Below the pieces are notes generated by a model that worked only from the letters and a program-made list of their open reading frames with translations, did not search any database and was not told the DNA's origin. A stretch of 64,000 nucleotides of DNA, taken from assembly GCA_943846785.1 (NCBI GenBank), contig OX044367.1, forward strand, positions 914,831 through 978,830, in the 5' to 3' direction. The position numbers and the translations under genes were made by a program. The DNA comes from an uncultured SAR86 cluster bacterium (GTDB lineage: Bacteria > Pseudomonadota > Gammaproteobacteria > Magnimaribacterales > D2472). Each line of letters starts with the position of its first letter. Positions within the stretch are counted from its first letter, which is position 1. Below are positions 5,762 through 24,768 of this stretch, one piece after another.

Positions 5762-5766
5762 AATAA

Positions 5767-7398: not shown

Positions 7399-7445
7399 GT
7401 GTGTGCCTCGTTTTAGTTATTGTAAAATGTAAAAAAGTTACTACA

Positions 7446-7483
7446 ATTATACCGTATATTTAATTATAGCTAACGGTTATAAT
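7446..7483. promoter_or_regulatory. divergent etfD/etfB promoter region: imperfect inverted repeat carrying a TATAAT box on each strand
   Basis: ATTATACCGT (7446-7455) and ACGGTTATAAT (7473-7483) are inverted copies with one extra T. TATAAT reads rightward at 7478-7483, 39 nt before the etfB ATG. It reads leftward at 7446-7451, 47 nt before the ETF-QO ATG. Confidence 0.4.
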
Positions 7484-7522
7484 ACTTCGAATTCAAATTA
7501 ACAAATTTATATAATAAAAATT

Positions 7523-8275
7523 ATGAAAATACTAGTACCAATTAAAAGAGTTGTTGATTACAACGTTAAGGTCAGACCTATGGCTGATGGCTCTGATGTT
7601 GATTTAAATAATGTAAAAATGTCAGTGAATCCTTTTTGTGAAATAGCATTAGAAGAGGCTGTTAGAATTAAAGAAGCTGGAAGTGCTGATGAGGTTGTTG
7701 CCATCTCTATTGGAAAGACTGAGTCTCAAGAACAACTAAGAACAGCACTCGCATTGGGAGCTGATAGAGCAATTTTAGTTGAAACAGATTCTTTGTTAGA
7801 ACCTTTAGCCATATCTAAAGCATTGGCAAAAGTTATTGAGCAAGAAAATCCTGATATTACTATTTTAGGAAAACAAGCAATTGATGGTGATAACAATCAA
7901 ACAGGTCAAATGTTAGGAGCTTTATTAGACTATCCGCAAGCTACAAATGCTTCTGAGGTCGTAATTGACGGAACTTCACTAAATGTTACTAGAGAAATTG
8001 ATGGTGGCCTTCAAACATTAAAATTATCAATGCCAGCAATCGTAACAACAGATCTAAGACTTAATGAACCAAGATACGCATCTCTTCCAAATATCATGAA
8101 AGCTAAGAAAAAAGAGCTTAATATTATTCCTCTTGCAGATTTGGGCGTTGATGCAACTCCTAGAACTGAATTACTGTCTGTGGAGCTTCCGCCTTCAAGG
8201 GAGGCAGGAATTATTGTTGAAACAATAGAAGAGCTTGTTGATAAACTTAAAAATGAAGCAAAGGTGATTTCATGA
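7523..8275 (+). CDS. etfB: electron transfer flavoprotein beta subunit
   Basis: [18 protein letters not shown]... and the overall sequence are typical EtfB. 250 aa. Confidence 0.9.
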
Positions 8276-9200
8276 GTATTTTAGTAATAGCAGAACATGA
8301 TAATAATAGTCTTAAAGGATCTACATTAAATACTGTAGCAGCCGCTGTTAATCTTGAAAAAGAAATAACGTTATTAGTAGCTGGATCTGACTGCAGTCGG
8401 TTGTATCTGAAGCTCAATCTGTAGATTCTATATCTAAAGTTATAGCAGTCGATGATGCTGTATATAAAAACTTTATTGCTGAAAATGTCTCAGCTTTAGT
8501 GCTTAGCATTGCTAGTGATTACTCATATATTATGGCACCAGCAACTACTTTTGGAAAAAATCTTTTACCAAGAGTTGCTGCAAAATTAGATTCTCAACAA
8601 ATATCTGACATTATTAGTGTTGAATCTGATGATACATTTAAAAGGCCTATCTATGCTGGAAGCTGTATAGCTACAGTTAAGTCTAATGACTCTATTAAAG
8701 TTATAACAGTTAGATCTACTGCTTTTGATGCAATTGGAATGTCAAATTCTGGTGTAGAAGTTGTGAGTATCGATGCTGTTGCAGATTCAGGAAAATGTGA
8801 GTTTGTTTCTGAAGAAATTGCTAAAAGCGATCGTCCTGAATTAACAGCTGCTAATATTGTTATATCTGGTGGAAGAGGAATGCAATCAGGTGATAATTTC
8901 CATCTTCTTGATTCTATTGCGGATAAACTTGGGGCTGCCGTTGGAGCTTCACGGGCTGCAGTGGATGCTGGCTATGTACCTAATGATTATCAGGTTGGAC
9001 AAACTGGTAAAATTGTAGCACCTGATTTATACATAGCTGTTGGCATATCTGGAGCTATTCAGCATTTAGCAGGTATGAAAGATTCAAAAGTGATAGTTGC
9101 AATTAATAAGGATGAAGATGCACCAATTTTTCAAGTAGCCGACTACGGTTTGGTATCTGATTTATTTACTGCCTTGCCTGAATTAGATTCAGCTTTGTAA
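8272..9200 (+). pseudogene. etfA: electron transfer flavoprotein alpha subunit, reading frame broken once (net 1-nt deficit between 8391 and 8424)
   Basis: The ATG at 8272 (ATGA overlap with etfB) gives [42 protein letters not shown], then stops at 8422-8424. The EtfA continuation (..VVSEAQSVDSISKVIAVDDAVYKN..APATTFGKNLLPRVAAKLD..) is in the neighbouring frame, which is open from 8391 and includes the listed 8499-9200 ORF. Confidence 0.85.
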
Positions 9201-9218
9201 ATAGTATTTCTTTTCCAT

Positions 9219-9249
9219 AAAAAGGATCATTTTTGGTCCTTTTTTTTTA
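9219..9249 (+). terminator. rho-independent terminator after etfA
   Basis: Stem AGGATC (9223-9228) pairs with GGTCCT (9235-9240), including one G.U pair. Loop ATTTTT, followed by T8, with an A-run upstream. Confidence 0.6.
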
Positions 9250-9273
9250 TCCTTTTGGTGGTAAACTTTTTGT

Positions 9274-10545
9274 ATGAAATTTTTATATATATTTTTAGCT
9301 TCCTTTTCTTTATCAGTTTCTGCCTCAACAGTTATCTATTCATCCTCATATATTGATGTTATTAATTTAACTGAAATGAATGATCATTCAATTGTAATAG
9401 ATGGCAATAAAATCAGCGCTATAGAAGCTGGCTTCATTCAACTTTCAAATGAAGATACATTGATTGATCTCAGAGGTATGACATTAATGCCTGGATTTAT
9501 GGATATGCATGTTCACTTTGGTCAAGAATATCTATCAAAAGCTGAACGTCCTGCAAAAGTTGAAAGAGAGACTAGTGCAATTATGGCAACATCTCATGCG
9601 CTTAAAACCTTAAAAGCAGGTTTTACAACAGTTAGGCAGGTTGGTGATAGTGGTATGGTTGCCATATCATTAAGAGATACCATTAATTCTGGTAAAATTA
9701 TTGGACCAAGAATATATACTTCAGGTAAGAGTATTGCTACTACTGGCGGTCATGCAGACCCAACTAATGGCCTTAGTTCAGATAGTTACAGTTATCCTTC
9801 AGCTGAAGATGGTGTTATCAATGGTCCATATGATGCCTATACTGCAGTTAGGCAGAGATATAAAGACGGTGCTGATGGTATTAAATTAACTGTAACAGGT
9901 GGAGTCTTAAGTGTTGCCAAATCAGGTGATAATCCTCAATTCACAATCGAAGAGGTTAACTCAGTTGTAAAGGCTGCAAAAGATTACGGTATGTGGGTTG
10001 CAGTTCATGCTCATGGAGCTGAAGGTATGAAAAGGGCAGTTATAGCTGGTGTCGACTCTGTTGAACATGGAACATTCATGACTGAAGAGGTTATGGATTT
10101 AATGATTCAAAATGGCACATACTATGTACCCACTATTTCTGCGGGAGAATTTGTTGCTGAAAAATCTAAAATTGATAATTATTTTCCTGAGATAGTTCGT
10201 CCAAAGGCTGCTAGTGTAGGTCCGCAAATATCAGCTACTTTTTCAAAAGCTTATAAAAGAGGTGTGAAAATTGCTTTTGGGACTGACGCTGGCGTTCAAC
10301 CTCATGGAACAAATTTAAAAGAGTTTGTTTATATGGTTAATAGCGGTATGCCCAATATAGAAGCTATTAAATCTGCAACATTAGAGACTGCTAAATTATT
10401 AAAGATAGATTCTGAACTTGGTTCTATTTCAGTGGGTAAATTGGCAGATTTGGTTGCTGTTAAGGGTAATCCAATTCAAGATATTAATAATATAGAGAAT
10501 ATTTCTTTTGTCATGAAAGATGGAGTTGTTATAGAGCATGATTAA
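9274..10545 (+). CDS. secreted amidohydrolase-family metallohydrolase (COG1228-like)
   Basis: Signal peptide MKFLYIFLASFSLSVSAS. Metal ligand motifs MDMHVHF, VHAHG and FGTDAG. Confidence 0.8.
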   Translation: MKFLYIFLASFSLSVSASTVIYSSSYIDVINLTEMNDHSIVIDGNKISAIEAGFIQLSNEDTLIDLRGMTLMPGFMDMHVHFGQEYLSKAERPAKVERETSAIMATSHALKTLKAGFTTVRQVGDSGMVAISLRDTINSGKIIGPRIYTSGKSIATTGGHADPTNGLSSDSYSYPSAEDGVINGPYDAYTAVRQRYKDGADGIKLTVTGGVLSVAKSGDNPQFTIEEVNSVVKAAKDYGMWVAVHAHGAEGMKRAVIAGVDSVEHGTFMTEEVMDLMIQNGTYYVPTISAGEFVAEKSKIDNYFPEIVRPKAASVGPQISATFSKAYKRGVKIAFGTDAGVQPHGTNLKEFVYMVNSGMPNIEAIKSATLETAKLLKIDSELGSISVGKLADLVAVKGNPIQDINNIENISFVMKDGVVIEHD

Positions 10546-11488
10546 TAAACTTAATCCTTTTTATGTTGCTTTATATGCTTCAATTCTGTTTCTTTTTACT
10601 TTTTTTGGTTTAAGTGCTCTTGGTCTTATTCAGTCATCAGTTGGTTTAGAATTTGTTGGACAAGCATCTAGATGGTGTGAAACTCTTTCAGATGGACTTT
10701 TCAGAGAACCAGTCAACACCCTAAGTAATTTAGGGTTTATGGTAGTTGGACTCTATATTTTTTGGATCATTTCAAATGAAGAAACTAACTCAGATAATGA
10801 ATTTTTTGGCCCCTCTAAAGTAGTTATTCTTTATGCATCTGCAGCTGTATTTTTAGGCCCTGGCTCTATGCTTATGCATGGAACAAATACTTTATGGGGT
10901 GGATGGGCTGATAATCTTAGTATGATTATGTATATAGTCATACCATGGCTTTATAACGTTTATAAAATGAGCAACTGGTCACAGCAGACTTTTATAAAAG
11001 CATATTTATCTATCATAGTAATCTACTCTGTATGGAGATGGTTTACCGATTGGGGATTAGGAATTAATTTCAACTTATTTTCAGTTTCTATAGGTTTGTG
11101 GTTTATCTCAGAGGTCTTATATTTCTGTAAAAATTTCTGGTCAGTATGGATAAGATTTTTTTCAGGTTTTGTAGGCTTTGTGGTTCTTGCATTATTTGGA
11201 ACGCTTCCTGCGGAAGTATTTGAGAATATTAATGAGTATTGGTGGATTATATTTTTCTGGTTACCTGGATTATTGGCTAACTCTAAGCCTGAAGGTAAAA
11301 GAACCTATATTTATTATTTATTAGGAATGGTTACTTACTTCGCTGCATTTTTTATCTGGAACTATGGAGTTCCAGATAATGAATACTGTAAACCTGACTC
11401 ACTAATTCAAGCTCATGGTCTATGGCATTTATTATCAGCTGTAGCTACTTACTTCTTTTTTCTACACTATAGATCTGAAAGAGTTTAA
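10538..11488 (+). CDS. polytopic membrane protein, alkaline-ceramidase-like family
   Basis: About 7 TM segments. WCE...EPVNTLSNLGF near TM1-2, LMHGT, and a C-terminal HGLWHLLSA motif resemble the ceramidase (PF05875-type) pattern as I recall it. 8-nt overlap with the amidohydrolase. Confidence 0.5.
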   Translation: MINKLNPFYVALYASILFLFTFFGLSALGLIQSSVGLEFVGQASRWCETLSDGLFREPVNTLSNLGFMVVGLYIFWIISNEETNSDNEFFGPSKVVILYASAAVFLGPGSMLMHGTNTLWGGWADNLSMIMYIVIPWLYNVYKMSNWSQQTFIKAYLSIIVIYSVWRWFTDWGLGINFNLFSVSIGLWFISEVLYFCKNFWSVWIRFFSGFVGFVVLALFGTLPAEVFENINEYWWIIFFWLPGLLANSKPEGKRTYIYYLLGMVTYFAAFFIWNYGVPDNEYCKPDSLIQAHGLWHLLSAVATYFFFLHYRSERV

Positions 11489-11531
11489 GTTGCTGCACTA
11501 TAAAATAGTTTCACATCCGGTACCATCAAGA

Positions 11532-11564
11532 AAATCAAGAACTCTTTTTTTATCTTCTTGATTT
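11532..11564. terminator. A/T-rich hairpin between convergent genes
   Basis: AAATCAAGAA (11532-11541) pairs perfectly with TTCTTGATTT (11555-11564). The loop is 13 nt and T-rich. The stem is weak because of its composition. Confidence 0.35.
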
Positions 11565-12529
11565 AATAGGTCGAACTCATTCTTAATCCATTTAGGCATT
11601 TGGCTTGATAAGGAAAAGTTTTTTGTTTCCACACAGCATTATCTATCTTCATTTCCCATGTTTCATCGCCGTTTTCAAGAGCTTTAGCATTTGACAATAA
11701 TGCCGGTATATACATTTTTCCAACTTCTTTTAACAGATTTTTTAGTGATTCTGGGCTATCCTCAAGTTTTGTCCATGCGGTATTTTCAGCATCGTGTCCT
11801 GAAAGATCATCTAAAATATCAACCCATGCTACAGTTCTCAATGAATATTCATATGCTATTTTTCTTGGTGTTGGATCAAATCCAACTAATTGGGTAAGTT
11901 GTCCATAAAAAGAAAAATCAGATGAAGAAGGTTTTGTACCTAACAAGAAAGGGCTATTCAGTAGAGTGTTCTTCCATTAGATTTAAAAATCTTTTATAAC
12001 TTGCATCAATAAAATCAGCAGTCCCATCATTTGAACCTACAACCCATAACCTATCTATCTGCCTCTTTGATACAAACTCCTTATATTGCGCAAGTGTTTC
12101 ATTTGGGGTATTCACAGCAATATCTACCAATGGGAGTATTGTTCCTGCAACATTCGCGTCCTCTTCAAAATACCATCTGTAGTGAAACATGTATTTGGTA
12201 ACCCATTCATCTCCAAAATCTTCAAGCAAATAATTTATAAATGCCAAGGCGGGGTCATCTGGAACTATCTTTCTTTCAGTAAATTCATTTTCCAATCTTC
12301 TTATTATTGGAGTTGAATCAGTAGTTGCTACTAATGAACCATCATCATTTGGTAATAAAATTGTTGGAAGTAGAACTGGCTTTGGTAGATCTATACCAAG
12401 TTTAGTAATTTTCTTAGCGATATCACCATTATAAACAATATAAGGGATATGCCTATACCTGAATGCAGCTAATATTTTTTGAGTATAAGGTGAGGGTGTT
12501 GCACCAAAAATCTTAATTTTTTCAGTCAT
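11563..12529 (-). pseudogene. GST-like protein (thioredoxin-fold N-domain plus GST C-domain), split by one frame change
   Basis: The 191-aa ORF (MTEKIKIFGATPSPYTQK...) ends at TAG 11954-11956. The second frame is open from 11976 and reads ..LLNSPFLLGTKPSSSDFSFYGQL.., a GST C-domain motif. The switch must lie in 11957-11976. Confidence 0.7.
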
Positions 12530-12559
12530 ATCTATACTTATATTTTTACAATTATTCCT

Positions 12560-13639
12560 TCATTGGGATTTATATTTCCAACTCACAATTTGATTATAAG
12601 TTTCTATAAAATTTTCAAGACCATCAATTTCAATAACATTCATCCAGTCTTTACTTTGATTAGATCTCTTGGCCATAAATTCATTAGTTCTTTGGTTATA
12701 GCCTTCATAGCCCCAATCTTTAAATCTTTTTTGGATATGTGCTGGTGCAAAAAAGAACTCAGTTCTTTCTCTTAACATTGCTTGTCCTAATGCATCTTCT
12801 GCTGTTACCTCATTCTCCCAATGAGTCATTCCAACTGTGTAGCACTTGAGCATATTATTTCCTAGTGAACCATGAAGTGTTCCTAAAATTTCACGACTTC
12901 CTGCCATATCAACCATAACAGTCTTGAGATCACTATTTACTGAGGATAGTTGATCATATGAAATAACTTGATCATAACAACCTAACTTAGTTACAAAATC
13001 AGTATTTTTTGAAGATGTAAGTCCAATTATAGTTGGGGTTTGTTCTGAGTCTTTAAGACCTTGTGCAAGACCTATTGCTGTTTTGCTTGAAGCACTAACA
13101 ATAATAATTTGATCTGCATCAAGATAAGCTTCATCTTCAAGCGCATCGCAAATACAAAAGGAAGTTATATGGAGAGGGAAAAGGAGTGATCTAAGATTAT
13201 CCTTGGAAGGATCATAATTATTATCTCCATTAACTCTAATATAATTATTGTATACAGCAGGTAAATCTTTTCGATGATCTTTACCATCACTAAAACCCTG
13301 ATCAGTAATTTTTATTGGGTTAATGATCAGTGAGTCAGCAGGGGGGAAGTATCCAAATAACCTTTCACCTTCTTTGATACAACTATTTTTTGATTGAGTT
13401 ACATTCGCAAATCCCCAGACTGGTATACAGCCCCAATTCATTATTTAAATCCTCTATTGTCTTTAAAGAATTGCCAGTAACCAATCGTATCTCCAGCAAC
13501 CCCATAAGTAACATTGTTTGATGTGAAAGCAAAACTTTCTATTGATACCGAGATTTCTCCTTCTTCAATTTCTAAGCTTTGTGTCTGAATAATCCTTGTT
13601 TTTGAAAGATCACTTTTTAAATGTTTGTAATTGCTTCAA
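12560..13639 (-). pseudogene. DUF2855 family protein, two frame changes near the 5' end
   Basis: The 293-aa ORF starts at ..NWGCIPVWGFANV. Upstream frames encode (TTG 13637-13639) MKQLQTFK / SDLSKTRIIQTQSLEIEEGEISVSIESFAFTSNNVTYGVAGDTIGYWQFFKDNRGFK. One break is at the A5 run (13614-13618). The other is confined to 13441-13447 and includes an A3 run. Confidence 0.65.
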
Positions 13640-13644
13640 AATTA

Positions 13645-14055
13645 TTATTCTTTAACTTCTATATTAAGCTGTCCAGCTAGTCCTGCTACTCTATGTTTGT
13701 TACTTTCTAAGTAATCAGGAGTCTGTTACCATTTTGAGCATTGCCTTTCTACTTGGATATCTTGCAATAGCAACTTTATCCCAAAGCTCTTCCACTCTCT
13801 CCAAGCATCAAGCGACTTACAGAGCCACCAAAAGACCATTCAGCCGCCAACTTTTTTTAAGTGTTCAAGGACTTCTTTGCCATATATAGCATAGGCTTCT
13901 TCGCCTGTGAGATCGCTATCTCTTCCATCTTCGTATTCAGCTTTTTCTTTAAATTTTAAAAGGTTAACCATAGCAATTGGAGTATCAGTATCACCTTCAA
14001 GAAATCCTTCCATTTGTTCTTTAGTGGGATGAACACTGTTGTTAAATTCCATCAT
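13645..14055 (-). pseudogene. DUF1330 domain protein, three +1 frame changes
   Basis: Spliced reading: MMEFNNSVHPTKEQMEGFLEG..EHLKK / AEWSFGGSVSRLMLGES / EELWDKVAIARYPSRKAMLKMVTD / PDYLESNKHRVAGLAGQLNIEVKE*. Breaks lie at the A7 run (13852-13858), within 13779-13807, and within 13718-13725. Confidence 0.65.
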
Positions 14056-14670
14056 TATTCCCCTAATGTTATAGCTTTTTGAAACGCTGGCCTGGCTTCA
14101 ATTCTAGCTACATAGTTTTTAATATGATCCATATCATCTGAAACACACCCTAGTCTGTTAGCCATAAAACATGAATGCCCAAGCATAAGATCGGCTGCTG
14201 AGAAATCCCCAACTAAGTAATCTTTATCTGCAAGGTTGTCGTTAACTGGTACAAGAGATTTGGCTATCAGATTTTGCGCTTGTCTTAAAACATTCTCATC
14301 TCTTCTATCAGGCGGCAATAAAATTGTTTGAACAACAACTTGATTCATTGGAGGCATAACCATCCCCTCACAATAATGAAACCATTGAAGATAATATGGG
14401 AACTCTTCAGAATTAGAGTCGGGTTTTAGACCACCATCTTTATGACGCTCAAGAACATATTGAATAATAGCTCCTGATTCAAAAATAGAAACTTCCCCAT
14501 CCTCTAACACTGGAACTCTTCCTAACGCATGTCTCGACCTATGTTCAGGTGATTTTAAGTCCTTCCTTGGTAAATGGCATGATATTTACTTCATAATCCA
14601 ATCCTAATTCTTCGAGAAGCCAAACAACTCTTCCAGCTCTAGTGCCAGCAGTAAAATGAACCTTTAACAT
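14055..14670 (-). pseudogene. glutathione S-transferase, one frame change in an A4 run
   Basis: ATG 14668-14670 gives MLKVHFTAGTRAGRVVWLLEELGLDYEVNIMPFTKEGLK. The continuation [29 protein letters not shown].. is in the +1 frame. An A4 run at 14553-14556 lies inside the switch window. Confidence 0.75.
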
Positions 14671-14712
14671 AAATAATCTCCTTCTATTTTTTTACCATTT
14701 TTTGTGCATTTT

Positions 14713-15363
14713 TTATAAATTCTTCTTTGTCTTTTCATCTTTTAATATACTTTCCCTATCTACAGGTATTTTAGTTCCTTTAATCATGCCTGGTTGCTCA
14801 TACATCCTATCTTTCCATTTTTCTAAATGAGTTAACCCATCAAGAGATACTCCAGACCAATTATGTGTTCTAACCCAACACCAATTAGCTATATCAGCTA
14901 TTGAGTATTCTCCTGCAAGCCATTCATTTTTAGAAAGATGAGTATCTAAGACCTCAAAAAGACGTCTTGATTCATTTTGATATCTATCAATAGCAGGTTG
15001 TAGTTTTTCAGGAAAGTATCTAAAAAAAACATTTGCCTGACCCATCATCGGACCAATACCACCCATTTGAAACATTAACCATTCTGTAACCTTTGCTCTA
15101 CCCACAACATCATCTGGTATAAGTTTCCCAGCTTTATCTGCTAAATAAAGCATGATTGCACCTGATTCAAAAATAGAAAGATCATTATCTGTATCTATAA
15201 TTGCAGGGATTCTTCCATTAGGACTTATTTTTAAAAAATCAGGTTTTTTTTGATCACCTTCTCCCAGATTTACTGAATGAAATTCATAAGGCATTTCAAG
15301 TGCCTCCAATGTACAAGACACTTTATGTCCATTAGGTGTAGATGCGGTATATAGATGAATCAT
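14713..15363 (-). CDS. yfcG: Nu-class glutathione S-transferase (YfcG-like), intact
   Basis: [53 protein letters not shown] closely parallels E. coli YfcG as I recall it. 216 aa. Confidence 0.8.
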
Positions 15364-15369
15364 AAAAAA

Positions 15370-16448
15370 TTACTCCTTGATAAAGTCCACTAATACCTTA
15401 GATAGTTGTTTTGGTCTTGTCCACTGAAAAAAATGTCCTCCACCTATTTGTGGGGCACTTATTGCATTTGGAGCCATCTTAAGAACATCTTTTTCAATTC
15501 CATTTGTTACTGGATCATCACCAGCAAAAATAGATAAAAATGGTTTATCTGATGTTTTAAAAAAAGCACGAGCTTCTTTTTGAGCTTCTAATGATTGATC
15601 TGGAATTATTGGGACATGGCTAGGCATTGCTCTTGGCCCCATTTTATATGACGGATCAGGAAATGGAGCCTCATACGCTTTCATTAAATCAGTATAAAAG
15701 GGTGATATCTTTTCTAGTCCTATCTTTTGTAACAGAATAGTGGATATAGGCTTTGACCGGAGATCTTGTCTAAACGTGACTCTCCATTTGCATTGCAGTT
15801 AAGTAATACCAATTGGAAGATTTTTTGAATCCCAAGTGAAATTTTTGCCAGTACATAAATTTTGTTGCCATGATGTTTGTATCTCCATCCATTTTTAATT
15901 TCTTTCATTACCATTTAAAGAAGCTTATTTTTTTATTGGACTGCTCTAAACTCTTTACTTCATCAATAACTTCTTGAGGAGTATTTGGATTATATGGAAG
16001 ACCTGTATTTCCCATAGCAATTTTTAAAAATCTATCTGGATCTGCAGCAACCATTCGCAAGCCAATTAATCCACCCCAGTCTTGGCCAAAAAAAGTAAGA
16101 TTTTTAAAATCATTTACTCTTCAACCACTCACCCATCCAATCTACTTGATTTTGGTAAGAATAATCCTCTCTTGCAGCAGGTTTATCGGATTTTCCATAA
16201 CCTATTAAGTCTGGTGCAATAACCCTTATTCCTGCCTCATTTAAAATGGGAATCATTTTAGCGTATAGGTAGCTCCAAACGGGTTGTCCATGCATTGCTA
16301 ATAATATTGGCCCATCTTTTGGCCCTTCATCAATATGATGAACTCTAAGCTCAGTGCCATCTTTGGTACGGATATATGTGTATATTGGATTATAAGGATA
16401 GTCCTTAATATCTTTAAATTGTGAATCAGGTGTTCTTAGAACTTCCAT
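15370..16448 (-). pseudogene. haloalkane-dehalogenase-like alpha/beta hydrolase, at least 3 frame changes
   Basis: The N-terminal ORF (..HHIDEGPKDGPILLAMHGQPVWSYLY..) stops at 16110-16112. The +1 frame continues [39 protein letters not shown], carrying the nucleophile motif. The C-terminal ORF has KAYEAPFPDPSYKMGPRAMPSHVP...GGGHFFQ. The middle (about 15690-15925) needs several more switches that I could not resolve. Confidence 0.75.
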
Positions 16449-17095
16449 CTAAATCCCTCCGTGTAATTTTATATTTTCAATAAGATCATCAAACTTATCC
16501 TGACCAAAAAAGTAGTTCCCCTTATAAACAGACAGGGGAACACCATGATGACCTGCTTCCAACTGATCAACTTGATTTTGTTTAATTTGGTTAACTAATT
16601 TAGCTTCATTTTTGATTACTTCTTCTTTAATTTCAGAAAGCTCAATATCAAAATCTTTTAATATTTCTGCTATATGATTATCTGTATTCCAATGTTTTAC
16701 TGACCATATTTTTTCTGAAAGTTTATAAGCAAACTCTATACCGTATCCTCTATTTGTCATTTCTTGACCCATATGACAAATATCAAAAATATATGGCTGG
16801 TCCTTAGCAATTTTAGCTGTAAAAATATTTTGTTTGATTGGGTCTGGTTTTACTGGAAGATTTAGAGGCATATTCAATAATTTAGCTTTTTTCTTAAAAT
16901 CTGACATGGTAGATAGAAAAAAGAACATATTTTTCTTTTCAAACCATTCAGGCATTCTTATTGCAATTGGATATACAAGCTTAAAATTTACATTAATATT
17001 TGACTCATTTTTAAGCTTTAACATTCTTGGCAGTATTAAATATGAATAGGGGCTCCTGTAAGAAAAATATAGATCAACATTTTATCATTATTCAT
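16449..17095 (-). pseudogene. DsbA-like 2-hydroxychromene-2-carboxylate isomerase family protein, one frame change
   Basis: ATG 17093-17095 gives MNNDK.., and the SPYSYL motif (..YRSPYSYLILPRMLKLKNE..) is in the adjacent frame. The C-terminus has HHGVPLSVYKGNYFFGQDKFDDL. The switch lies within 17039-17083, which holds a 5-nt run (17063-17067) and a 4-nt run (17080-17083). Confidence 0.7.
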
Positions 17096-18768
17096 TCTAA
17101 ATTTATAATTTTTTGTAATTTTTCATTTCTTAGCCTCTTACTTACATGTTGTTTGGCCTTTGTCTTATCTTCTATCTGTTTTGGTATATCTGTTGTGACT
17201 GGCATAAAGACTGATTGAGGCCAGCTTGGCTCTGGCATTGATTCAATATGAGTATTAAGCTTTGCATGCAATAGACTTTTTAAAGTTAACTCTGACATTG
17301 CATAGATTATTTTGTTCATATGGATCATTTTTAAGGTTATATAAATACTCTTGTTCATTTGGAAATTTCGATCTTATTAACTTCCAATCATTATGAATAA
17401 TTGCCTGATAGGTTGCATTTTTCCAATAAAGAGTTTCATGTGGTTCCCCACTCTTTTCATTAGTTAAAAAGGGAATAAGGTTTATACCATCTATTTTAAT
17501 TTCTTTTAGGTTGTTCAATATTCGCAGCTCCTAATATAGTACTAAAAATATCTGTGTGGTGAATTCGTTTACTAAATACCTGATTTTTATCTATTATTGA
17601 TGGCCACTTTGCAAAAAATGGCACATGCACACCTCCTTCAAAATGAGTAAGCTTCCATCCTCGATAGGGCTTATTTATATCATGCAGACCAATATAACCA
17701 GCGCCACCATTATCAGAAGTAAAGATTATTAAAGTATTCTCAGTTAAACCATTTTCTTCAAGTGCATCAACAATTTTCTCAATTGATCTATCAAGAGCCT
17801 CTATCATTCCAGAATAGACTTGAAGCGTATGGTTTTGCATATGTTTGTGCTTTTCATAATCTTTCTTAAGTGACTGTAAGGGGTTGTGAGGCGCAAAATG
17901 ACCCAAGTAAAGAAAGAATGGCCTATCTTTATTATTGTTTATTACATTTACAGCTTCATTAGTATAGTAATCCGTTATGTATCCACCAGGCTCAAATGGC
18001 TCTACCTCCATTAAAACTTACTGCAAATTGTGATGATGCCCAAACCATATCTTCAATACTGCTATCTATTTTCGCATTTACAACATCTGGATGATTTTTA
18101 GGAAGATATAAACTGCTATTAAGCATTAAACTATCATCAAAGCCTTGATCATTAGGTTTCATTCCATCTGTAAATCCACCTAAATGCCATTTACCAATAT
18201 GAGCAGTGTAGTAACCATTATCTTTAAGCAATTCTGCAATTGTTATTTCGTCACTAGGAAGTCCTCCAATCGTTAGACCAACTTCATCCCACTGAACATC
18301 ATCCAGCTCTATGGTTTCCAACTCTCCATCGCGTCTGAGTAAATTCATTATCCTCGCCGCATTTGCAGGGTAGGGGGTAAATTCAAACCCATATCTACTC
18401 GAATATCTTCCTGTCATTATAGATGCTCTTGAAGGAGAACATACTGGGCTTGCTGCATAACCATTAGTAAAAGCAATACCATCTCGTGCAAGCTTATCTA
18501 TATTTGGTGTTTTAAGTGACCCATCAGCTGCACCACCATTATAAAAAGAAACGTCATTAAACCCCAAATCATCGGCTAGTATCAAAATAATATTTGGTTT
18601 TTCCGATATAACTCTTTCTTTATTAGCTGGCCAAATAATTTCTCGGTTTTCTGCAATTGGATTACTAAAATTTAGCGATAAAGGAATTAGTGTAAGCGCA
18701 ATTTCTTTTTTAAAGTTCCACCCAACTGCAATGCATAAAAGTATTAAAAATATAATTTTTTTTTTCAT
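17092..18768 (-). pseudogene. Cys-type arylsulfatase, three frame changes
   Basis: Four overlapping ORF pieces of 258, 171, 87 and 88 aa. Signal peptide, ADDLGFND, and the CSPSRASIMTGR formylglycine motif. The junctions splice as ..SFN/EVEPFEPGGY.. (about 17992-18011), ..NIEQPK/EIKIDGINLIPF.. (A4 run, about 17496-17518) and ..DPYEQNNL/..AMSELTLKSLL.. (about 17255-17300). The stop overlaps the next gene's start (ATGA). Confidence 0.8.
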
Positions 18769-18909
18769 TTCAGTTTAAATCTTATTATATTTAAAGAATT
18801 AAGGTATGCGTTTTTTTGAAAATCATTTATGCATGATTGCACAAAAAAAAATTTACAGACTATAAATGGATATATAAACTTGAAATGTTGTTTAAAAAAG
18901 TTTGAACCA

Positions 18910-19974
18910 ATGTTAAAAATATTTAAATATTTAGTTTTAGTTATAGTGTCTCTTTATATTATAGGTACTCTATCTTTAAAGAATCATTTTATTCAAGACA
19001 GTCTTTTAAATATAGCTATCAAATCAATTGCCACACCAGAATCATACCTAACAGAGGGTGATGCATTAACAGCAATAGTGTGCGGCTCTAGAGCACCAAT
19101 TAATGATCCAGCAAGAGCTGAGGCATGCATTCTTGTTCAAGCGGGTAAAGATATTTATATATTTGATACTGGTGGTGGAAGTATAGCTAATTTACATAAT
19201 TGGAATATACCTTGGGATAGAGTAAAGACCATATTTTATACTCACCTTCATTCTGATCATGTTTTTGATATTGCTGATTTCCATCAAGCAACCTGGATTA
19301 ATGGTGCAAGAGATACTAAACAAAAAGTATATGGACCTGAAGGAGTTCAAATGCTTACCGATGGAATTGAGCTAGCTTACACAAAAGATTATTTATTTAG
19401 AAATCAGCATCATGGAGATAGTATTGCTCCATTAAATATAGCAGGTTTTGATACTCACACTGTTGATTTAGATAATCCTATACTAATTGATGATGGAGAT
19501 TTAAAAATAACAGCATATAACGTATCTCATGACCCAGTTGATCCAGCTCTTGGTTATAGAATAGATTACAAGGGACGATCTATAAGTATTAGTGGAGATA
19601 CAATTTATGATCAAAATCTTGTTAAAAATTCTAAAAATGTCGATGTTTTATTTCATGAATCTATGTCGCTTGAAATATTAGACCTTATAAACCAAGTTGC
19701 TAAAAGAAATAATAACTATATAGCTGATACTGTAACAATAGATATTCTTGATTATCACACGCCTATTATGGATGTAGTAAAAGCTGCTAATGAAGCTAAT
19801 GTAAAACATCTTGTTTTTTATCATCATCTTCCAGCCCCACGCAATCAATTGATGGAGGATATTATGTATAGAGGTGTTGATAAGGTCACAGATGAATGGA
19901 CTTCATCGCATGATGGAACAAGAGTCATTCTTCCTATAGGTTCAACTGAAATATTAGTTGATCGAATTGAATAG
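18910..19974 (+). CDS. MBL-fold metallo-hydrolase with N-terminal membrane anchor
   Basis: HLHSDH (HxHxDH) motif and a later ..SGDT.. motif. I prefer ATG 18910 (MLKIFKYLVLVIVSLYIIG), which is followed by a hydrophobic segment, over ATG 18829. Confidence 0.7.
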   Translation: MLKIFKYLVLVIVSLYIIGTLSLKNHFIQDSLLNIAIKSIATPESYLTEGDALTAIVCGSRAPINDPARAEACILVQAGKDIYIFDTGGGSIANLHNWNIPWDRVKTIFYTHLHSDHVFDIADFHQATWINGARDTKQKVYGPEGVQMLTDGIELAYTKDYLFRNQHHGDSIAPLNIAGFDTHTVDLDNPILIDDGDLKITAYNVSHDPVDPALGYRIDYKGRSISISGDTIYDQNLVKNSKNVDVLFHESMSLEILDLINQVAKRNNNYIADTVTIDILDYHTPIMDVVKAANEANVKHLVFYHHLPAPRNQLMEDIMYRGVDKVTDEWTSSHDGTRVILPIGSTEILVDRIE

Positions 19975-20045
19975 AGTTAAATAAATTTTATATATTTCAA
20001 CAAATTGCTTTAGTATGTTGTTAATTTAAATAGGTGTAAAAAATT

Positions 20046-20969
20046 ATGAATAGAGTATTAAGAGATACAGGCGCAAAATATCCAATTGTTCAAGCTCCAA
20101 TGGGATGGATTGCAAGAAGCCAGTTAGCCTCAGCAGTATCGAATGCAGGTGGTTTAGGCGTTATTGAAACTTCTTCTGGTGAGGTTGATATTTGCAAAGA
20201 AGAAATTAAAAAAATGGCTAGCCTTACAGATAAACCTTTTGGAATAAATCTACCGTTACTATTCTTAAAAGACTCATCTATGGTAGATTTTTGTGTAGAT
20301 AACAATGTAAATTTTGTAACAACTTCTGCTGGTGATCCATCAAAATATATTAAAGTCTTAAAAGATGCAGATATTACTGTTTATCATGCTGTGCCTAACT
20401 TACAAGGCGCTCTTAAAGCATTTGAGGCTGGCGTTGATGGTCTTGTTGTTGAAGGAACCGAGGGAGGTGGATTTAAGGGTTATGAAGAAATCGGCTTAGC
20501 TGTTCTAATACAAGCTATTAAAAAAGAAATAGATTTACCAATCATTGCAGCTGGTGGAATAGTAAATGGTATAGGAATGGCATCAGCCTTTGCTGCAGGA
20601 GCTGAGGCTATTCAAATGGGAACACGCTTTGTTTCTTCAATAGAAAGCCCTGTTCATGATAATTTTAAAGATTCGATTAAAAGTGCAGGAACAGATGGAA
20701 CATATATTCTTAATAAATCCTCTAAGCCAGTCATAAGAGCATTAAAAACAGATTTTACTAAAGATATTTATGAGAAAGGTTCAATGAACATGGGAGATCT
20801 GGCAAAAATTAAAGATCTTTATTTTGGTGGCGATATGAATGCTGCACCAGCTTTAGCAGGACAATCATCAGGTTTAATTAATGAAATTAAGTCAGTTAAA
20901 AATATTATTGATGAAACTATAAGTGAATATAATCAAGTCTGTTTAAATCTATCAAAGAATCTTTTTTAA
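20046..20969 (+). CDS. nitronate monooxygenase (NMO, 2-nitropropane dioxygenase family)
   Basis: YPIVQAPMGWIA..AVSNAGGLGVIE, EGGGF, and IAAGGI..GTRF motifs of the FMN TIM-barrel NMO family. Confidence 0.8.
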   Translation: MNRVLRDTGAKYPIVQAPMGWIARSQLASAVSNAGGLGVIETSSGEVDICKEEIKKMASLTDKPFGINLPLLFLKDSSMVDFCVDNNVNFVTTSAGDPSKYIKVLKDADITVYHAVPNLQGALKAFEAGVDGLVVEGTEGGGFKGYEEIGLAVLIQAIKKEIDLPIIAAGGIVNGIGMASAFAAGAEAIQMGTRFVSSIESPVHDNFKDSIKSAGTDGTYILNKSSKPVIRALKTDFTKDIYEKGSMNMGDLAKIKDLYFGGDMNAAPALAGQSSGLINEIKSVKNIIDETISEYNQVCLNLSKNLF

Positions 20970-21062
20970 ATACGTATTTTTTACACATAATTCTTTCTTT
21001 TTCTTATTGCAAAGCTCATATATAATTTTGATTATTATTTATTTTATTAATAGGGGATTAGA

Positions 21063-23501
21063 ATGAAAAATTCTATTTTTACACTATCTGTTCTGCTTTC
21101 AATGTCTATATTTTTAGATGCTCAAGATGTTGAAGAAGTTATTGTTACGGCAACCAAAACTGAAAAAACACTTCAAGAGGTTCCAATAGCGGTATCAGTT
21201 GTAACTGCTGATGTTATTGAAAAAGCTAACGTTGTTGATATATTTGATCTTAAGTCAGTTGTACCATCACTTGATACAAGACAATACCAATCATCTGTTA
21301 ATACAACTTTTTTTATTAGAGGTTTCGGCAATGGATCAAATAATCCGGGCATTGAACCTTCTGTCGCTGTTTTTATTGATGGTGTATACAGATCTAAAAC
21401 CCAAAGTCAGATATCTGATTTACCAATGGTCGAGAGAATTGAGGTTCTAAGAGGACCACAAAGTACTTTATTTGGCAAAAATGCTTCTGCTGGTGTTATA
21501 AATATTGTTACTAAAAAACCATCCTTTGAAAAGTCTGGAAATGTTTCTTTTGGAATAGGTAAATATAATTCAAGAGTTGGTAAGGTTTATTATACAGGCC
21601 CTCTAAATGAGAATCTTGCCTATAGTTTTAGTGCTAACTTTAATAAAAGAGATGGTCATTCAGAAAATCCTATCACTGGGAATGCTACTAACGATAGAGA
21701 TAGAGTAGGCTATAGAGCAGAGCTCTTATATGTACCATCTGATGATTTATCAGTTAGGGTTACTGCTGATTACGATGATTATGACGAAATATGTTGTGCC
21801 GTTGGAAGTACTTCATATGGAGTTGGAAACCAAGTAACTGCAATGTTAGGTGGGCAAATAATCCCTAATGATCCTTATACAGAAAAAGCATTCTATGACT
21901 TTGATCCTACTTCAAAAGGCGATAATTCTGGTTTATCTATTCACATAGAAAAGAATCTAGAAAATGCAACGATTGAAAGTATTACCTCATACAGAAAATC
22001 ATATAACTTTGAAGTTCAGGATGTTGACTTTGATGCTGTTAATGTAATTGCTCCAAGTCCAATTGAAAAAGATCTAAATGGTGTTACACAAGAATTAAGA
22101 ATCTACTCTGAAGACAATGAAAAAGTTAATTGGTTATTTGGTGGTTTTTATTATCAAGAAGATATGGATTTTAATGAATCTATTTACTACGGACCTTTAT
22201 GGAGAACTTATCTAGATGCATTTCTACCTGCAGGAACCATTGCTGGCGTTGCAGCTGCTTTTGGTCTTCCAGATAGCTTAATGTTTGCAGCTGGTCAGGG
22301 CAATACAGAAACAGCCACTCAAGATAATTCAACTAAATCTATCTTTGCACAATTTGACATTCAACTTACTGAAAAGCTTAATGCTATTATCGGCGCTAGT
22401 TATATGGAAGATGAAAAGTCTGTTTCATATAATCAAATCAATACTGCTGTATTTTCAAATCTTGATTTTGTAGGTGCTGGAGCAATGGGATTAATAGCAG
22501 CAGGCATTCCACCATCACAGGCTGTAGTTCTTGCAACAGATCCTGCTTACAACCCTTTATTACCTCTCAGAGGACTTCAATTTATTCCTCAATTTGTTAA
22601 TTTTCCAAATGCTGCACAAGATGGTAAAAGCAGTGATGATAATGTCGACTATACAGCTAAATTATCTTATGCATTAAATGATGCAGTAACTCTTTATGGT
22701 GGTGTTTCAACTGGATTTAAAGCAACTGCTTGGAACATATCAAGAAACTCACTTCCAAATGCGACTGAAACTGCTGCACTTGCTTCTGCAGGAACTCCAG
22801 TCGGTCCTAATACTGGTCTTGGACAAAGGTATGCTGACCCAGAAGAAGCTGAAGTATTTGAATTAGGAGCAAAAATTTATCTCCCTTCCGGTTATCTAAA
22901 TATAGCTATGTTTGATCAAGAAATTAAGGGCTTTCAATCAAATACATTTATTGGAACAGGTTTTGTACTAGCAAATGCTGGATCTCAGTCAGCTGATGGT
23001 TATGAGTTTGATTTGGTATTCTCACCCACTGATAATATTGACTTAGCTGTAAGTGGTTTATTTATTGATCCGGTGTATGACTCATTCCCTAATTCAGCCT
23101 CTGGAGATTTAACAGGTACAACACCAACGAATATCCCTGAGGATACTATCTCTTCAAATATTACTTGGAACTGGGAAAGAAATGGTTTTGATGGTTATGT
23201 TAGATTAAGTCATCTTTATGCAAGTGAAGTTAAATTACTTGAAAATCCAACATGGCAAGCAATTCTTGAATCTAATGGAAATGGTATTAAAGAGCAAGAT
23301 ACATTAAACATTTCTGCAGGTATAGAAAAGGAGGGCGTTGGTGGAGGTGTTTTATCACTAATGTTCTATGGTAAAAACATTAATGATGACAAATGGATTA
23401 CATCTGCTTTCCCAGCTGTTGCTGATCCATCTTCAACAACATTTTTTGGATATCCTAATAACTATAAGAGCTATGGTCTAATGGTAAATTATAGTTTTTA
23501 A
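21063..23501 (+). CDS. TonB-dependent outer-membrane receptor
   Basis: Signal peptide. Plug motifs (EEVIVTATK, VEVLRGPQSTLFGKNASAGVINIVTK). A long beta-barrel ends in a terminal aromatic residue (..NYSF). Confidence 0.9.
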   Translation: MKNSIFTLSVLLSMSIFLDAQDVEEVIVTATKTEKTLQEVPIAVSVVTADVIEKANVVDIFDLKSVVPSLDTRQYQSSVNTTFFIRGFGNGSNNPGIEPSVAVFIDGVYRSKTQSQISDLPMVERIEVLRGPQSTLFGKNASAGVINIVTKKPSFEKSGNVSFGIGKYNSRVGKVYYTGPLNENLAYSFSANFNKRDGHSENPITGNATNDRDRVGYRAELLYVPSDDLSVRVTADYDDYDEICCAVGSTSYGVGNQVTAMLGGQIIPNDPYTEKAFYDFDPTSKGDNSGLSIHIEKNLENATIESITSYRKSYNFEVQDVDFDAVNVIAPSPIEKDLNGVTQELRIYSEDNEKVNWLFGGFYYQEDMDFNESIYYGPLWRTYLDAFLPAGTIAGVAAAFGLPDSLMFAAGQGNTETATQDNSTKSIFAQFDIQLTEKLNAIIGASYMEDEKSVSYNQINTAVFSNLDFVGAGAMGLIAAGIPPSQAVVLATDPAYNPLLPLRGLQFIPQFVNFPNAAQDGKSSDDNVDYTAKLSYALNDAVTLYGGVSTGFKATAWNISRNSLPNATETAALASAGTPVGPNTGLGQRYADPEEAEVFELGAKIYLPSGYLNIAMFDQEIKGFQSNTFIGTGFVLANAGSQSADGYEFDLVFSPTDNIDLAVSGLFIDPVYDSFPNSASGDLTGTTPTNIPEDTISSNITWNWERNGFDGYVRLSHLYASEVKLLENPTWQAILESNGNGIKEQDTLNISAGIEKEGVGGGVLSLMFYGKNINDDKWITSAFPAVADPSSTTFFGYPNNYKSYGLMVNYSF

Positions 23502-23516
23502 GACAAAACTATTTAA

Positions 23517-23546
23517 ACAAAAAGGGAGCCTGTGCTCCCTTTTTTA
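23517..23546. terminator. bidirectional rho-independent terminator
   Basis: AAAAA-GGGAGC(23524-23529)-CTGT-GCTCCC(23534-23539)-TTTTTT, lying between convergent genes. Confidence 0.7.
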
Positions 23547-23954
23547 ATCTTCGATATCTTTTCTAATCTTTAATTTTTCTAAGCTTATTTGATCCTTTAA
23601 AGTCATGATATAGGCCGCACCTGCAAGAATTAATATTCCTGAAGCTTCATAAATTATATTCAATGAGTCAAGTTCTTTGCTTTGAAGAATAATCATTCTA
23701 GTTAAAGCTGTCATTGCAATAATTATCGGAAGAGTGACTGGAAGTCTATTACTTGCATAAAAAGATCCAACCATACCCAGTACCTCTGCGTAGATAAATA
23801 AAAGAAATAGGTCACTTAATGTGACTACTTGTTCGATAATTAATCTATAGATTTCAATTCCAGTTGCATACAAAGTAGCTATTGCAATTATCATTAATAT
23901 AGATCTTTCTGAGATATCTATAAAGTTTTGCCAAACATTAATATTTTTTTTCAT
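23544..23954 (-). CDS. PsiE-like (phosphate-starvation-inducible E family) membrane protein
   Basis: 136 aa with 4 hydrophobic segments. Size and layout resemble E. coli PsiE (..FIYAEVL.., ..MTALTRMII..). Confidence 0.5.
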   Translation of the reverse strand: MKKNINVWQNFIDISERSILMIIAIATLYATGIEIYRLIIEQVVTLSDLFLLFIYAEVLGMVGSFYASNRLPVTLPIIIAMTALTRMIILQSKELDSLNIIYEASGILILAGAAYIMTLKDQISLEKLKIRKDIED

Positions 23955-24084
23955 ATTTAGATTATATGTAACTTTTTATAACTATAGAAATTTTATATAT
24001 ACATAAAATATATACTTCAGTGAGTTAAATATAAACATAAACGTATATATTTAAAGATTGTTAATTTAATAATAGGGAAAAATT

Positions 24085-24768
24085 ATGAATAAATTAAAAC
24101 TATTTTTTGTATTAGTTTTTGCTTTTAATATAAATGGGGCACCAGAAGGGGCCTTTAATACTCTTATGGTTAAAGCTAAAAATGTAGATGCTTATGTAGA
24201 TTATATGAGAAACAATACTGGTCCATTTGAAGCAATTGGTGCTGATATGGCTGGTGTTTGCGTTACTCGGTCAGGCAATGATTATAAAGGCCAAATGTTT
24301 GTTTGGAACGCCTTTCCATCTGTTGAAAAGGCATTAGCTGCCTCTGACTTATATGATCCAATGAATGCATCTGCTAGCTTTAATAAACTTAGAAAGGTCA
24401 TGTATTCTGCTACTTTTAAACCCATTAAGGAATTTGATCTCAAACCAGGATCAGAAAGACTATGGAGACTAAAGCTTAATAATCCTAGAGCCTATGTTCA
24501 AAAGGTAACAGAATTAGAAATGGCAATGAATAAAGCAGGTCATGATATGAGAATAGGTGTTTTTGCTCCTATAGCTGGTGGTAAGGAAGAGACTGGGATG
24601 TATCATGTAAGAGCCGTAAGTAATACTGCTGCAGAAAGTGGCGCTGCTCTAGATGACTATTATGCAGGTGCAAAATGGGGAGATATTTGGAGAGAATCTC
24701 TAAAGTATGTAGATGAAGTTGTTACCGATACTATGGAAAAATGTGAAGTTATATACACCGCAAATTGA
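24085..24768 (+). CDS. secreted protein of unknown function with an internal two-fold repeat
   Basis: Signal peptide MNKLKLFFVLVFAFNINGA. Residues 27-41 (LMVKAKNVDAYVDYM) echo residues 127-141 (WRLKLNNPRAYVQKV), exactly 100 aa apart. A good SD (AGGGAAAA) precedes the start. Confidence 0.5.
   Translation: MNKLKLFFVLVFAFNINGAPEGAFNTLMVKAKNVDAYVDYMRNNTGPFEAIGADMAGVCVTRSGNDYKGQMFVWNAFPSVEKALAASDLYDPMNASASFNKLRKVMYSATFKPIKEFDLKPGSERLWRLKLNNPRAYVQKVTELEMAMNKAGHDMRIGVFAPIAGGKEETGMYHVRAVSNTAAESGAALDDYYAGAKWGDIWRESLKYVDEVVTDTMEKCEVIYTAN

Follow-up and report, generated by a model that had tools for sequence, protein, structure and literature searches.

How can every gene of one operon be broken by frame changes in a genome whose neighbouring sequence reads cleanly? 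The question is raised by a minus-strand detoxification operon at 18768-11492 of the window, by which is meant the whole 64,000-nt stretch of SAR86 DNA analysed here. An earlier note, made from the sequence alone, described eight tightly packed genes in this region, and both the order and the close packing are confirmed, with gene families identified by Pfam searches of the fragments and of intact alleles. The genes encode a sulfatase (PF00884), a DsbA-like protein (PF01323), an alpha/beta-hydrolase (PF00561), a YfcG-like glutathione S-transferase (GST), a second GST, a DUF1330 protein (PF07045), a DUF2855 protein (PF11017) and a long GST-like protein. Two independent methods, frameshift-aware protein-to-DNA alignment and DNA alignments to orthologues, served to map the frame changes. 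The breakage by frame changes is real, and it goes beyond the seven broken genes and at least 14 changes first counted: none of the eight genes has escaped, and the events number at least 20, with about 15 single-base insertions, two scrambled blocks and four single-base deletions. The comparisons described below indicate that these frameshifts are very probably a consensus artefact of collapsed strains at a real hypervariable island, and represent neither gene decay nor homopolymer miscalls.

The damage can be followed gene by gene along the minus strand. In the sulfatase gene (17137-18768; about 543 residues when intact; PF00884 on fragments, with frameshift-aware and site alignments), the three switches seen earlier are single-base insertions at 18003, 17508 and 17303; a scrambled 3' end at 17145-17179, on balance 14 nt shorter than in the L171 haplotype and without its stop codon, had been missed. 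The DsbA-like or HCCA-isomerase-like gene (16449-17095; 215 residues when intact; Pfam and identity profile) has the one switch ascribed to it, a 1-nt deletion near 17080 (ATAATAATG to ATAAAATG) that shifts the start codon into another frame; over 16449-17000, the rest of this gene matches the intact L171-type allele at every position (100%). In the haloalkane-dehalogenase-like alpha/beta-hydrolase gene (15370-16448; 354-363 residues when intact; Pfam and alignments), for which at least three switches had been given, there is an insertion at 16116 and a blended block at about 15700-15990 with roughly 10 surplus bases, for example at 15838, 15798-15799 and 15737. The YfcG-like GST gene (14687-15363; 226-227 residues when intact; profile match and alignments to relatives) had been called intact. 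This was wrong - a 1-nt deletion at 14735, on a C/T SNP between L082 and L083, rewrites about the last 16 residues of the C-terminus, leaving a product of 216 residues against 226-227 in all relatives. The second GST gene (14055-14670; 204 residues when intact; frameshift-aware and site alignments) carries its single reported switch as a 1-nt insertion at 14558-14559, where the window has GGACTTA, L082 has GGA-TTA and L083 has GGAC-TA. The three switches of the DUF1330 gene (13640-14055; 133-134 residues when intact; PF07045 on the intact allele, alignments) are likewise recovered as single-base insertions at 13843, 13797 and 13721, all three on inter-haplotype SNPs. The last two genes had been undercounted. 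The DUF2855 gene (12541-13639; 365-366 residues when intact; PF11017, alignments) has four single-base insertions instead of two switches, at 13613-13621, 13461, 13437 and 12584, and the long GST-like gene (11492-12529; 343-345 residues when intact; frameshift-aware and site alignments) has two events instead of one, namely a nucleotide inserted at 11966 and another missing at 11593, where L162 and L173 differ by a G/T SNP. The reported absence of nonsense codons outside the middle of the dehalogenase-like gene holds in the cleanly alignable parts, that is, outside the blended block, where frameshift-aware alignment found no in-frame nonsense codon.

The damage is also as sharply localised as had been proposed. 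Outside the operon, open reading frames of at least 100 codons span 95% of the sequence. The left flank (539-11400) aligns to L161 with one gap and the right flank (18897-30969) to L164 with none, giving one indel in about 23 kb. Eleven sibling assemblies of long-read style are 99.9-100% identical to the window in the flanks; inside 11.5-18.8 kb their identity drops to 86-97%, with gaps by the dozen. The one frame change noticed elsewhere in the window is a 1-nt deletion at 8397 on the plus strand, in the gene for ETF-alpha, located by alignment and by a gap between open reading frames at 8275-8499. No other frameshift was found outside the operon. At this site the window has GCAGT-CGG, L161 and L162 (with an ETF-alpha of 309 residues) have GCAGTGCGG, and there is no homopolymer. 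A tRNA scan of the window was empty.

If the operon were decaying, one might expect its indels to be found in other sequences of the same locus. At a local identity of 92-99%, eight related genomes and the short-read metagenome contigs carry an unbroken copy of every gene. The gene order, whose absence from relatives would by the note's reasoning have weakened the operon reading, is conserved with every gene intact in L001, L002, L007 and L061, so that this check does not refute it. The companion suggestion was to see whether the indels are shared with orthologous loci; none of the window's indels is present in the short-read contigs or the related genomes. Exact look-ups of three of the window's products, the 216-residue GST and the sulfatase and DUF2855 fragments of 258 and 293 residues, found no match in the searchable collections. 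Among the 11 siblings, which come from other samples, the operon is broken in eight, in differing sets of genes, and intact in three (L165, L171 and L173). Two events do recur, 16116 (in L161, L166, L170 and L172) and 12584 (in L169), solely in long-read-style assemblies, and these could be real minor alleles instead of a recurrent artefact. In most siblings, the counts of mismatches and frameshifting indels in the operon relative to an intact reference are 0/0, 9/1, 11/2, 24/3, 54/7, 97/8 and 157/15, and at a second variable spot the indels of most siblings likewise increase with mismatches. An invariant flank of 6.8 kb has no mismatches and no frameshifting indels in eight siblings and the window. 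The exception is L173, whose operon differs from that of L171 by 108 mismatches but by no frameshifting indel; therefore, divergence alone does not force errors.

The positions of the indels bear on their origin. They lie on SNPs between co-occurring haplotypes, where the window has the two alleles next to each other or lacks both. At 13461, for example, haplotypes have AAA-ACT or AAA-GCA and the window has AAAGACA; at 13797, haplotypes have GGAGG-AG or GGAGA-GG and the window has GGAGAGAG; in both cases the surplus base is the alternative allele. The association was measured by ungapped voting, with a null from simulated non-homopolymer insertions, in three versions of the test. The insertions that fit numbered 8 of 14, 11 of 15 and 14 of 15, against null rates of 11.1%, 21.8% and 42.1%, respectively (P about 3-5e-5 in each version). 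A search of the haplotype panel for polymorphisms matching the deletion at 8397 and the insertion at 17303 found none. Over about 4 kb compared with L082 and L083, the only length differences are 11 frameshifting 1-nt events, with no indels in multiples of three.

Haplotype painting places these events within a mosaic. At least three intact haplotypes, each assembled independently, contribute to the operon in the window, with segments of L171 type, L081 type and L082/L084 type, and two blocks that match nothing well. In these two blocks the allele of origin switches every few bases, as seen in the hydrolase gene at 15.7-16.0 kb. Within the sulfatase gene, the L171-type source gives way to the L081 type at 17508 and resumes near 17200. 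The segment 13500-15400 is nearest to the short-read contigs L081, L082, L084 and L085 (0-4 differences per 100 nt) and differs from all sibling long-read assemblies by 4-29 per 100 nt. The genomic surroundings of L082 are different, SDR and NMO genes lying downstream.

These observations suggest how the broken operon may have arisen. The source is a metagenome assembly, very probably a long-read, Flye-like one, of a North Sea-type SAR86 population; the names of matching short-read contigs are ones that we take to denote North Sea samples. In that population most of the genome would be nearly clonal and the eight-gene operon would exist in several deeply diverged alleles. The assembler would have merged these alleles into one path, and consensus or polishing would have drawn on reads of more than one allele. 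At a SNP, or at two adjacent SNPs, the consensus step may then have set the alternative bases in separate columns. Retention of both would produce a 1-nt insertion of a non-neighbouring base, retention of neither a 1-nt deletion, and very different alleles would give a scrambled blend. The broken genes would thus be a property of the consensus sequence and not of any cell. The sequencing platform and the assembler are deduced from the names and sizes of sibling contigs, and which consensus step produced the errors is likewise an inference. A 30-sample North Sea series assembled from PacBio HiFi reads with Flye --meta, in which SAR86 was abundant, has been published (PMC10108472), and a sister study applied FragGeneScan to PacBio assemblies because of their more frequent frameshifts (PMC10877868); the naming and sizes of contigs and the number of samples, along with the North Sea sample names, suggest that the window may belong to this series. 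The Great Barrier Reef Nanopore/Illumina hybrid dataset was discounted as the origin of the siblings, since it comprises just 27 hybrid assemblies and, to judge by ENA numbering, its project was registered after these assemblies.

The note had itself favoured a sequence artefact over biology, and that part of its reading stands; the mechanism that it proposed, homopolymer-length miscalling in a poorly covered stretch, does not, and is now highly improbable. The genome is about 33% GC and A/T runs do lie near several switch points, with the event at 13613-13621 adjoining an A5 run. These runs appear to be bystanders, as none of the indels lengthens or shortens the runs that were named: the A7 run at 13852-13858, for example, has the same length in relatives. 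The inserted base forms a run of one in 11 of the 15 insertions and a run of two in three, and it is usually unlike both neighbours, as in TTT[C]AC, GGC[T]GAA and AAA[G]ACA. The remaining insertion, at 13613-13621, abuts the A5 run but is a different base (run length 5 including the inserted base), and the closest haplotype sets the gap on the neighbouring G. Nothing points to poor coverage as the cause; the errors track strain polymorphism, and random low-coverage error would not favour SNP sites. Recent inactivation of the operon, the note's alternative, would mean that one SAR86 strain has accumulated about 20 frameshift mutations. The involvement of all eight genes between clean flanks and the recurrence of the alleles at 16116 and 12584 are what such decay might look like, and yet it is very unlikely. 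Besides the absence of the indels from short-read contigs and related genomes, and the siblings of the same population that are intact or broken at other sites, the indels sit on inter-haplotype SNPs with both alleles present (P about 4e-5), and nonsense codons are missing from the cleanly aligned parts. In addition, real bacterial indels and pseudogene decay show a deletion bias and an association with repeats. The events here comprise 15 insertions and four deletions, nearly all outside repeats; this excess runs opposite to the bias of decay and therefore counts against pseudogenisation. Finally, the segment at 13.5-15.4 kb differs from its nearest haplotype by about six indels and about 15 substitutions, which is far too indel-rich for natural decay.

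A different possibility is that the mosaic is a genuine recombinant haplotype, produced by homologous exchange among co-occurring SAR86 lineages, and that only the small indels are consensus errors. Tracts of 0.3-2 kb do each agree at 98-100% with one known haplotype, L173 and other intact siblings represent distinct haplotypes within the same flanks, and gene-content variants exist at the island. However, switches of haplotype fall together with indels, as at 17508, the block at 15.7-16.0 kb alternates between alleles every few bases, in L161 and L168 the same two alleles are partly mixed, in a graded manner and with added indels, and the L082-type tract derives from a lineage with another downstream context. 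This explanation is unlikely, although part of the mosaic could reflect genuine recombination instead of a chimeric consensus. The indels might also be real and have arisen in vivo, if homeologous recombination of alleles that are 5-20% divergent were followed by faulty heteroduplex repair that kept the bases of both strands. There is little chance that this is correct; if it were, recombination between lineages would have a mutational outcome not described before, with an operon destroyed in one recombinant lineage. Programmed ribosomal frameshifting or transcriptional slippage, by which the frames would be decoded in vivo, might seem to be suggested by the nearly uniform sign of the events, one added base. 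No motif, slippery or otherwise, is common to the sites, which are conserved in none of the orthologues (all single-frame) or conspecific sequences and vary between assemblies of the same population; an Rfam scan of the window found no element. This explanation has a negligible probability and was rejected because neither site nor motif is conserved.

The preferred explanation, a consensus of collapsed strains, has known relatives. Strainberry and Strainy are reportedly strain-aware tools that address collapsed-strain consensus errors in long-read metagenome assemblies. As with such errors, the damage in the window is confined to a strain-variable region, with a haplotype mosaic and indels at polymorphic sites, and the outcome differs between samples as the strain mixture shifts. 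What differs is the signature of both alleles in tandem, which was derived solely by sequence comparison and of which no description was found in the literature examined. The tool proovframe is said to correct frameshifts in long-read assemblies with homopolymer miscalls. The window resembles such assemblies in that its genes are split by single-base indels and can be re-spliced with the aid of intact homologues. Homopolymer-miscall errors, however, are genome-wide and lie in homopolymers, whereas those of the window lie within 7.2 kb and outside homopolymers.

The broken operon is biologically unimportant because no cell likely carries it. Its value is as a fingerprint of the artefact: non-homopolymer 1-nt insertions that cluster in a strain-variable locus and in which the two alleles of the population stand next to each other. 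Such a fingerprint can flag false pseudogenes in long-read metagenome-assembled genomes even when no reads are at hand. Pseudogene counts and calls of 'operon loss' in these genomes will be inflated precisely at those loci that vary most and are of greatest ecological interest.

The locus itself resembles the replacement-type flexible genomic islands, in which divergent allelic gene clusters occupy a fixed locus in otherwise near-identical genomes: its flanks are 99.9-100% identical, its alleles are up to about 20% apart in nucleotide sequence, and siblings include gene-content variants. It departs from the classic examples, which are cell-envelope glycosylation clusters, in being a GST / sulfatase / hydrolase cluster, and also in that some of the apparent haplotypes may stem from other SAR86 lineages. 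A modest point worth noting is that this SAR86 GST / sulfatase / dehalogenase-like cluster behaves as a hypervariable island, with deeply diverged, selectively maintained alleles amid nearly identical genomes. Purifying selection shows in the dN/dS ratio of 0.04-0.22, which was computed on intact alleles since a value for the window's re-spliced genes, as an allele blend, would be meaningless.

The window, with a GC content of about 33%, is a fragment of a SAR86-clade gammaproteobacterium, and outside the operon 95% of it lies under long intact ORFs. The region from 11.5 to 18.8 kb is split into many short ORFs. Here the minus strand carries eight closely packed genes (18768 to about 11492), which encode in order a sulfatase (Pfam PF00884), a DsbA-like/HCCA-isomerase-like protein (PF01323), an alpha/beta-hydrolase of the haloalkane-dehalogenase type (PF00561), a YfcG-like GST, a second GST (GST2), DUF1330 (PF07045), DUF2855 (PF11017) and a long GST-like protein. 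The operon gene order described in the earlier note is conserved in the related SAR86 genomes L001, L002, L007 and L061 and in other relatives, where the eight genes occur in identical order (75-82% nucleotide identity) and none is broken.

Frame-breaking events were mapped in two independent ways, by frameshift-aware protein-to-DNA alignment and by DNA multiple alignments, with intact SAR86 relatives as guides. Both approaches placed the window-specific events at the same sites, and the list was refined with closer sequences. The sulfatase gene is interrupted at 18003, 17508 and 17303 and has a scrambled 3' end (17145-17179); the DsbA-like gene has a 1-nt deletion near 17080, with loss of the start; and the hydrolase gene has an event at 16116 and, over about 15700-15990, a block that gains roughly ten bases. 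Further downstream, the YfcG-like GST gene carries a 1-nt deletion at 14735, and events fall at 14558 in GST2, at 13843, 13797 and 13721 in DUF1330, at 13613-13621, 13461, 13437 and 12584 in DUF2855, and at 11966 and 11593 in the GST-like gene. Because the list spans every gene, all eight operon genes are damaged, with at least 20 events, including about 15 single-base insertions and 4 single-base deletions. The earlier note had recognized the damage but undercounted it, at seven of eight genes and at least 14 frame changes; the YfcG-like GST that it took to be intact has lost its true C-terminus to the deletion at 14735 (216 versus 226-227 aa). The sharp localisation was correctly seen, since the flanks are clean, with no gaps in 12 kb on the right and one in 10.9 kb on the left. 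This is also the single frame change noted outside the operon, a 1-nt deletion at 8397 (plus strand) in the ETF-alpha gene, which splits it into one ORF ending at 8275 and another starting at 8499. It lies outside any homopolymer (GCAGT-CGG in the window versus GCAGTGCGG), and the two available comparators, the sibling assemblies L161 and L162, show no polymorphism at the site.

Sequences from the same population were found in two sets. In a scan of metagenome contigs, the short-read contigs L081-L085 matched portions of the operon at 92-99% identity, and no gene in them is broken; aligned across about 4 kb, the window differs in length from L082 or L083 by 11 frameshifting 1-nt events and by nothing else. 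Sibling assemblies, recovered by exact-protein look-ups with intact flanking genes, come from different samples and are of long-read style, with ENA ERZ10646xxx accessions and Flye-style contig or scaffold names; their contigs are 0.2-1.2 Mb long. In the flanks they are 99.8-99.9% identical to the window and essentially gap-free; inside 11.5-18.8 kb identity falls to 86-97%, with dozens of gaps. The operon is intact in three siblings (L165, L171 and L173) and broken in eight others, in differing sets of genes. The window's indels are private to it except for those at 16116 and 12584. TTGAAGAGT at 16116 also occurs in L161, L166, L170 and L172, and the extra G at 12584 in L169, all long-read-style assemblies from other samples.

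Intact haplotypes of the population are separated by a SNP at the indel sites, where the window holds both alleles in tandem. At 14558 L082 has GGA-TTA, L083 has GGAC-TA and the window has GGACTTA; at 13461 the haplotypes AAA-ACT and AAA-GCA correspond to AAAGACA, at 13797 GGAGG-AG and GGAGA-GG to GGAGAGAG, and at 13437 GAA-TGG and GAT-TGG to GAATTGG. At 14735, a C/T SNP, and at 11593, a G/T SNP, a base is deleted and the window has neither allele. In an ungapped voting test, an insertion was scored as two-allele if the deletion that gave the best match fell on different bases, not equivalent to one another, in different panel members; the null came from non-homopolymer insertions simulated over this operon. 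Under the strict rule, 8 of 14 sites scored with the population panel (null 11.1%, P = 3.7e-5) and 11 of 15 with the wider panel (null 21.8%, P = 3.0e-5); the relaxed rule gave 14 of 15 with the wider panel (null 42.1%, P = 5.0e-5). No matching polymorphism was found in the panel for 17303 or 8397.

Each sibling was also compared with the intact sibling L171 (figures are mismatches/frameshifting indels). In an invariant 6.8 kb flank, the 8 siblings aligned over it and the window itself all show 0/0. Within the operon of most siblings, indels climb with mismatches (0/0, 9/1, 11/2, 24/3, 54/7, 97/8 and 157/15). The exception is L173, whose 108 mismatches and lack of indels mark it as a divergent haplotype that was assembled cleanly. 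A second variable spot at about 23-24 kb, comprising the 3' end of a TonB-dependent receptor gene (21063-23501) and PsiE (23544-23954), behaves as the operon does: intact in the window, it is fragmented in L165, L166, L168 and L169, with values of 35/11, 90/8, 20/5 and 19/6 among the broken siblings. The sibling comparison thus argues that errors track strain variation, rather than a particular sequence or a coverage hole. L173 has truncated gene calls at this second spot (window 23000-24000).

Taken on the sequence comparisons (private indels, their coincidence with SNPs of which both alleles are kept, haplotype mosaicism, sample-specific damage in siblings, and intact independent sequences), the broken operon is very probably an artefact of a collapsed-strain consensus. 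A single path would have taken in reads that belong to several alleles of a hypervariable island, and consensus calling or polishing would have rendered SNPs as 1-nt insertions or deletions and blended the stretches of high divergence. The homopolymer-length error favoured in the earlier note does not survive as a mechanism. The inserted base is mostly unlike its neighbours (TTT[C]AC, GGC[T]GAA, AAA[G]ACA, TGT[G]AGT); counting the inserted base itself, the run length is 1 in 11 cases, 2 in three and 5 in one ambiguous case, so that 14 of 15 are runs of 1-2, and the A/T runs singled out in that note are the same length in relatives. With indel contexts that contradict it, homopolymer or low-coverage error is extremely unlikely. 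Programmed frameshifting is effectively excluded because no shift site is conserved. Genuine pseudogenisation is very unlikely: the spectrum is insertion-biased and outside repeats, the cleanly aligned parts contain no nonsense codons, no short-read sequence shares the indels, and the indels coincide with SNPs. Residual doubts on the artefact reading come from the recurrence of 16116 in four siblings and 12584 in one, and from 17303 and 8397, which are unmatched in the panel. The two recurrent alleles fit the pattern in which both alleles are kept, but they may be real minor alleles.

When the window is painted in 100-nt bins by nearest haplotype, 18.9-17.5, 17.0-16.0 and 12.2-11.3 kb are nearest L171-type, 17.5-17.2 kb is nearest the metagenome contig type L081, and 15.4-13.5 kb is nearest L082/L084-type, all with 0-4 differences per 100 nt. 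The frameshift at 17508 falls exactly on a haplotype switch. The lineage of the L082-type tract has SDR and presumed NMO genes downstream, versus a convergent ceramidase-family gene in the window. No good match exists for 15.7-16.0 and 17.0-17.2 kb (10-16 differences per 100 nt). In the 15.7-16.0 kb block the source allele flips every few bases, as in GGTAT/TACTTAACT/GCAATGCAAATGG, which is GGTATGATTAATGAAATGCAAATGG and GGTTTAATTAACTCCTTTCAAATGG joined with two bases gained; tracts of a few bases are not a product of recombination. That the mosaic is in part a true recombinant, with only the indels artefactual, is unlikely overall, though possible for the long tracts.

Under the collapsed-strain reading, the broken operon is genuine as a feature of the sequence but not of the organism, and its biological interest is low. 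We infer the sequencing platform and assembler. A 30-sample PacBio HiFi/Flye --meta North Sea bloom series in which SAR86 is abundant has been described (PMC10108472), and for its own PacBio assemblies a companion paper (PMC10877868) chose FragGeneScan 'due to a higher number of frameshifts'; a literature search found no link between the sibling accessions and either study. If the reads are HiFi, random read error could not account for a consensus indel rate of 0.3%, and the mixed-allele mechanism would be a still better fit. One by-product is a read-free fingerprint for false pseudogenes of the collapsed-strain class.

Another is the view of the GST/sulfatase/hydrolase cluster as a hypervariable island with gene-content variants in an otherwise near-clonal SAR86 population. 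Island alleles (11492-18768; L161-L173 and L081-L087) differ by 1.5-20% at the nucleotide level, against flanks that are 99.9-100% identical in 10 or more assemblies. Pairwise comparison of intact alleles gives dN/dS of 0.04-0.22 at dS of about 0.2-2.7, a sign that purifying selection has long acted on these deeply diverged operon alleles, and hence that the operon is functional in nature. In L161, L164, L167, L169, L170, L084 and L087, the sulfatase and DsbA genes are separated by a 278-aa DJ-1/PfpI gene; the window lacks it, with the junction at about 17110-17126. DUF2855 is duplicated in L165, and L167 has an extra inserted TonB-dependent receptor gene.

At the operon's 3' end synteny is lost. 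The window and its siblings have the convergent ceramidase-family gene there (PF05875; window 10538-11488, plus strand); in the more distant relatives L001 and L061, as in the L082/L083 lineage, the GST-like gene is instead followed by an SDR gene. The next gene after SDR in L082/L083 encodes 322 aa and is presumably NMO-like. On the other side, a metallo-beta-lactamase-fold gene (18829-19974, plus strand) is divergent from the operon. Its sibling-locus copies have precomputed Pfam hits to PF23023 (Anti-Pycsar Apyc1) and Lactamase_B, and the PF23023 match probably reflects a shared fold only. The likely start (MLKIFKYL...) lies 27 codons into the ORF as listed.
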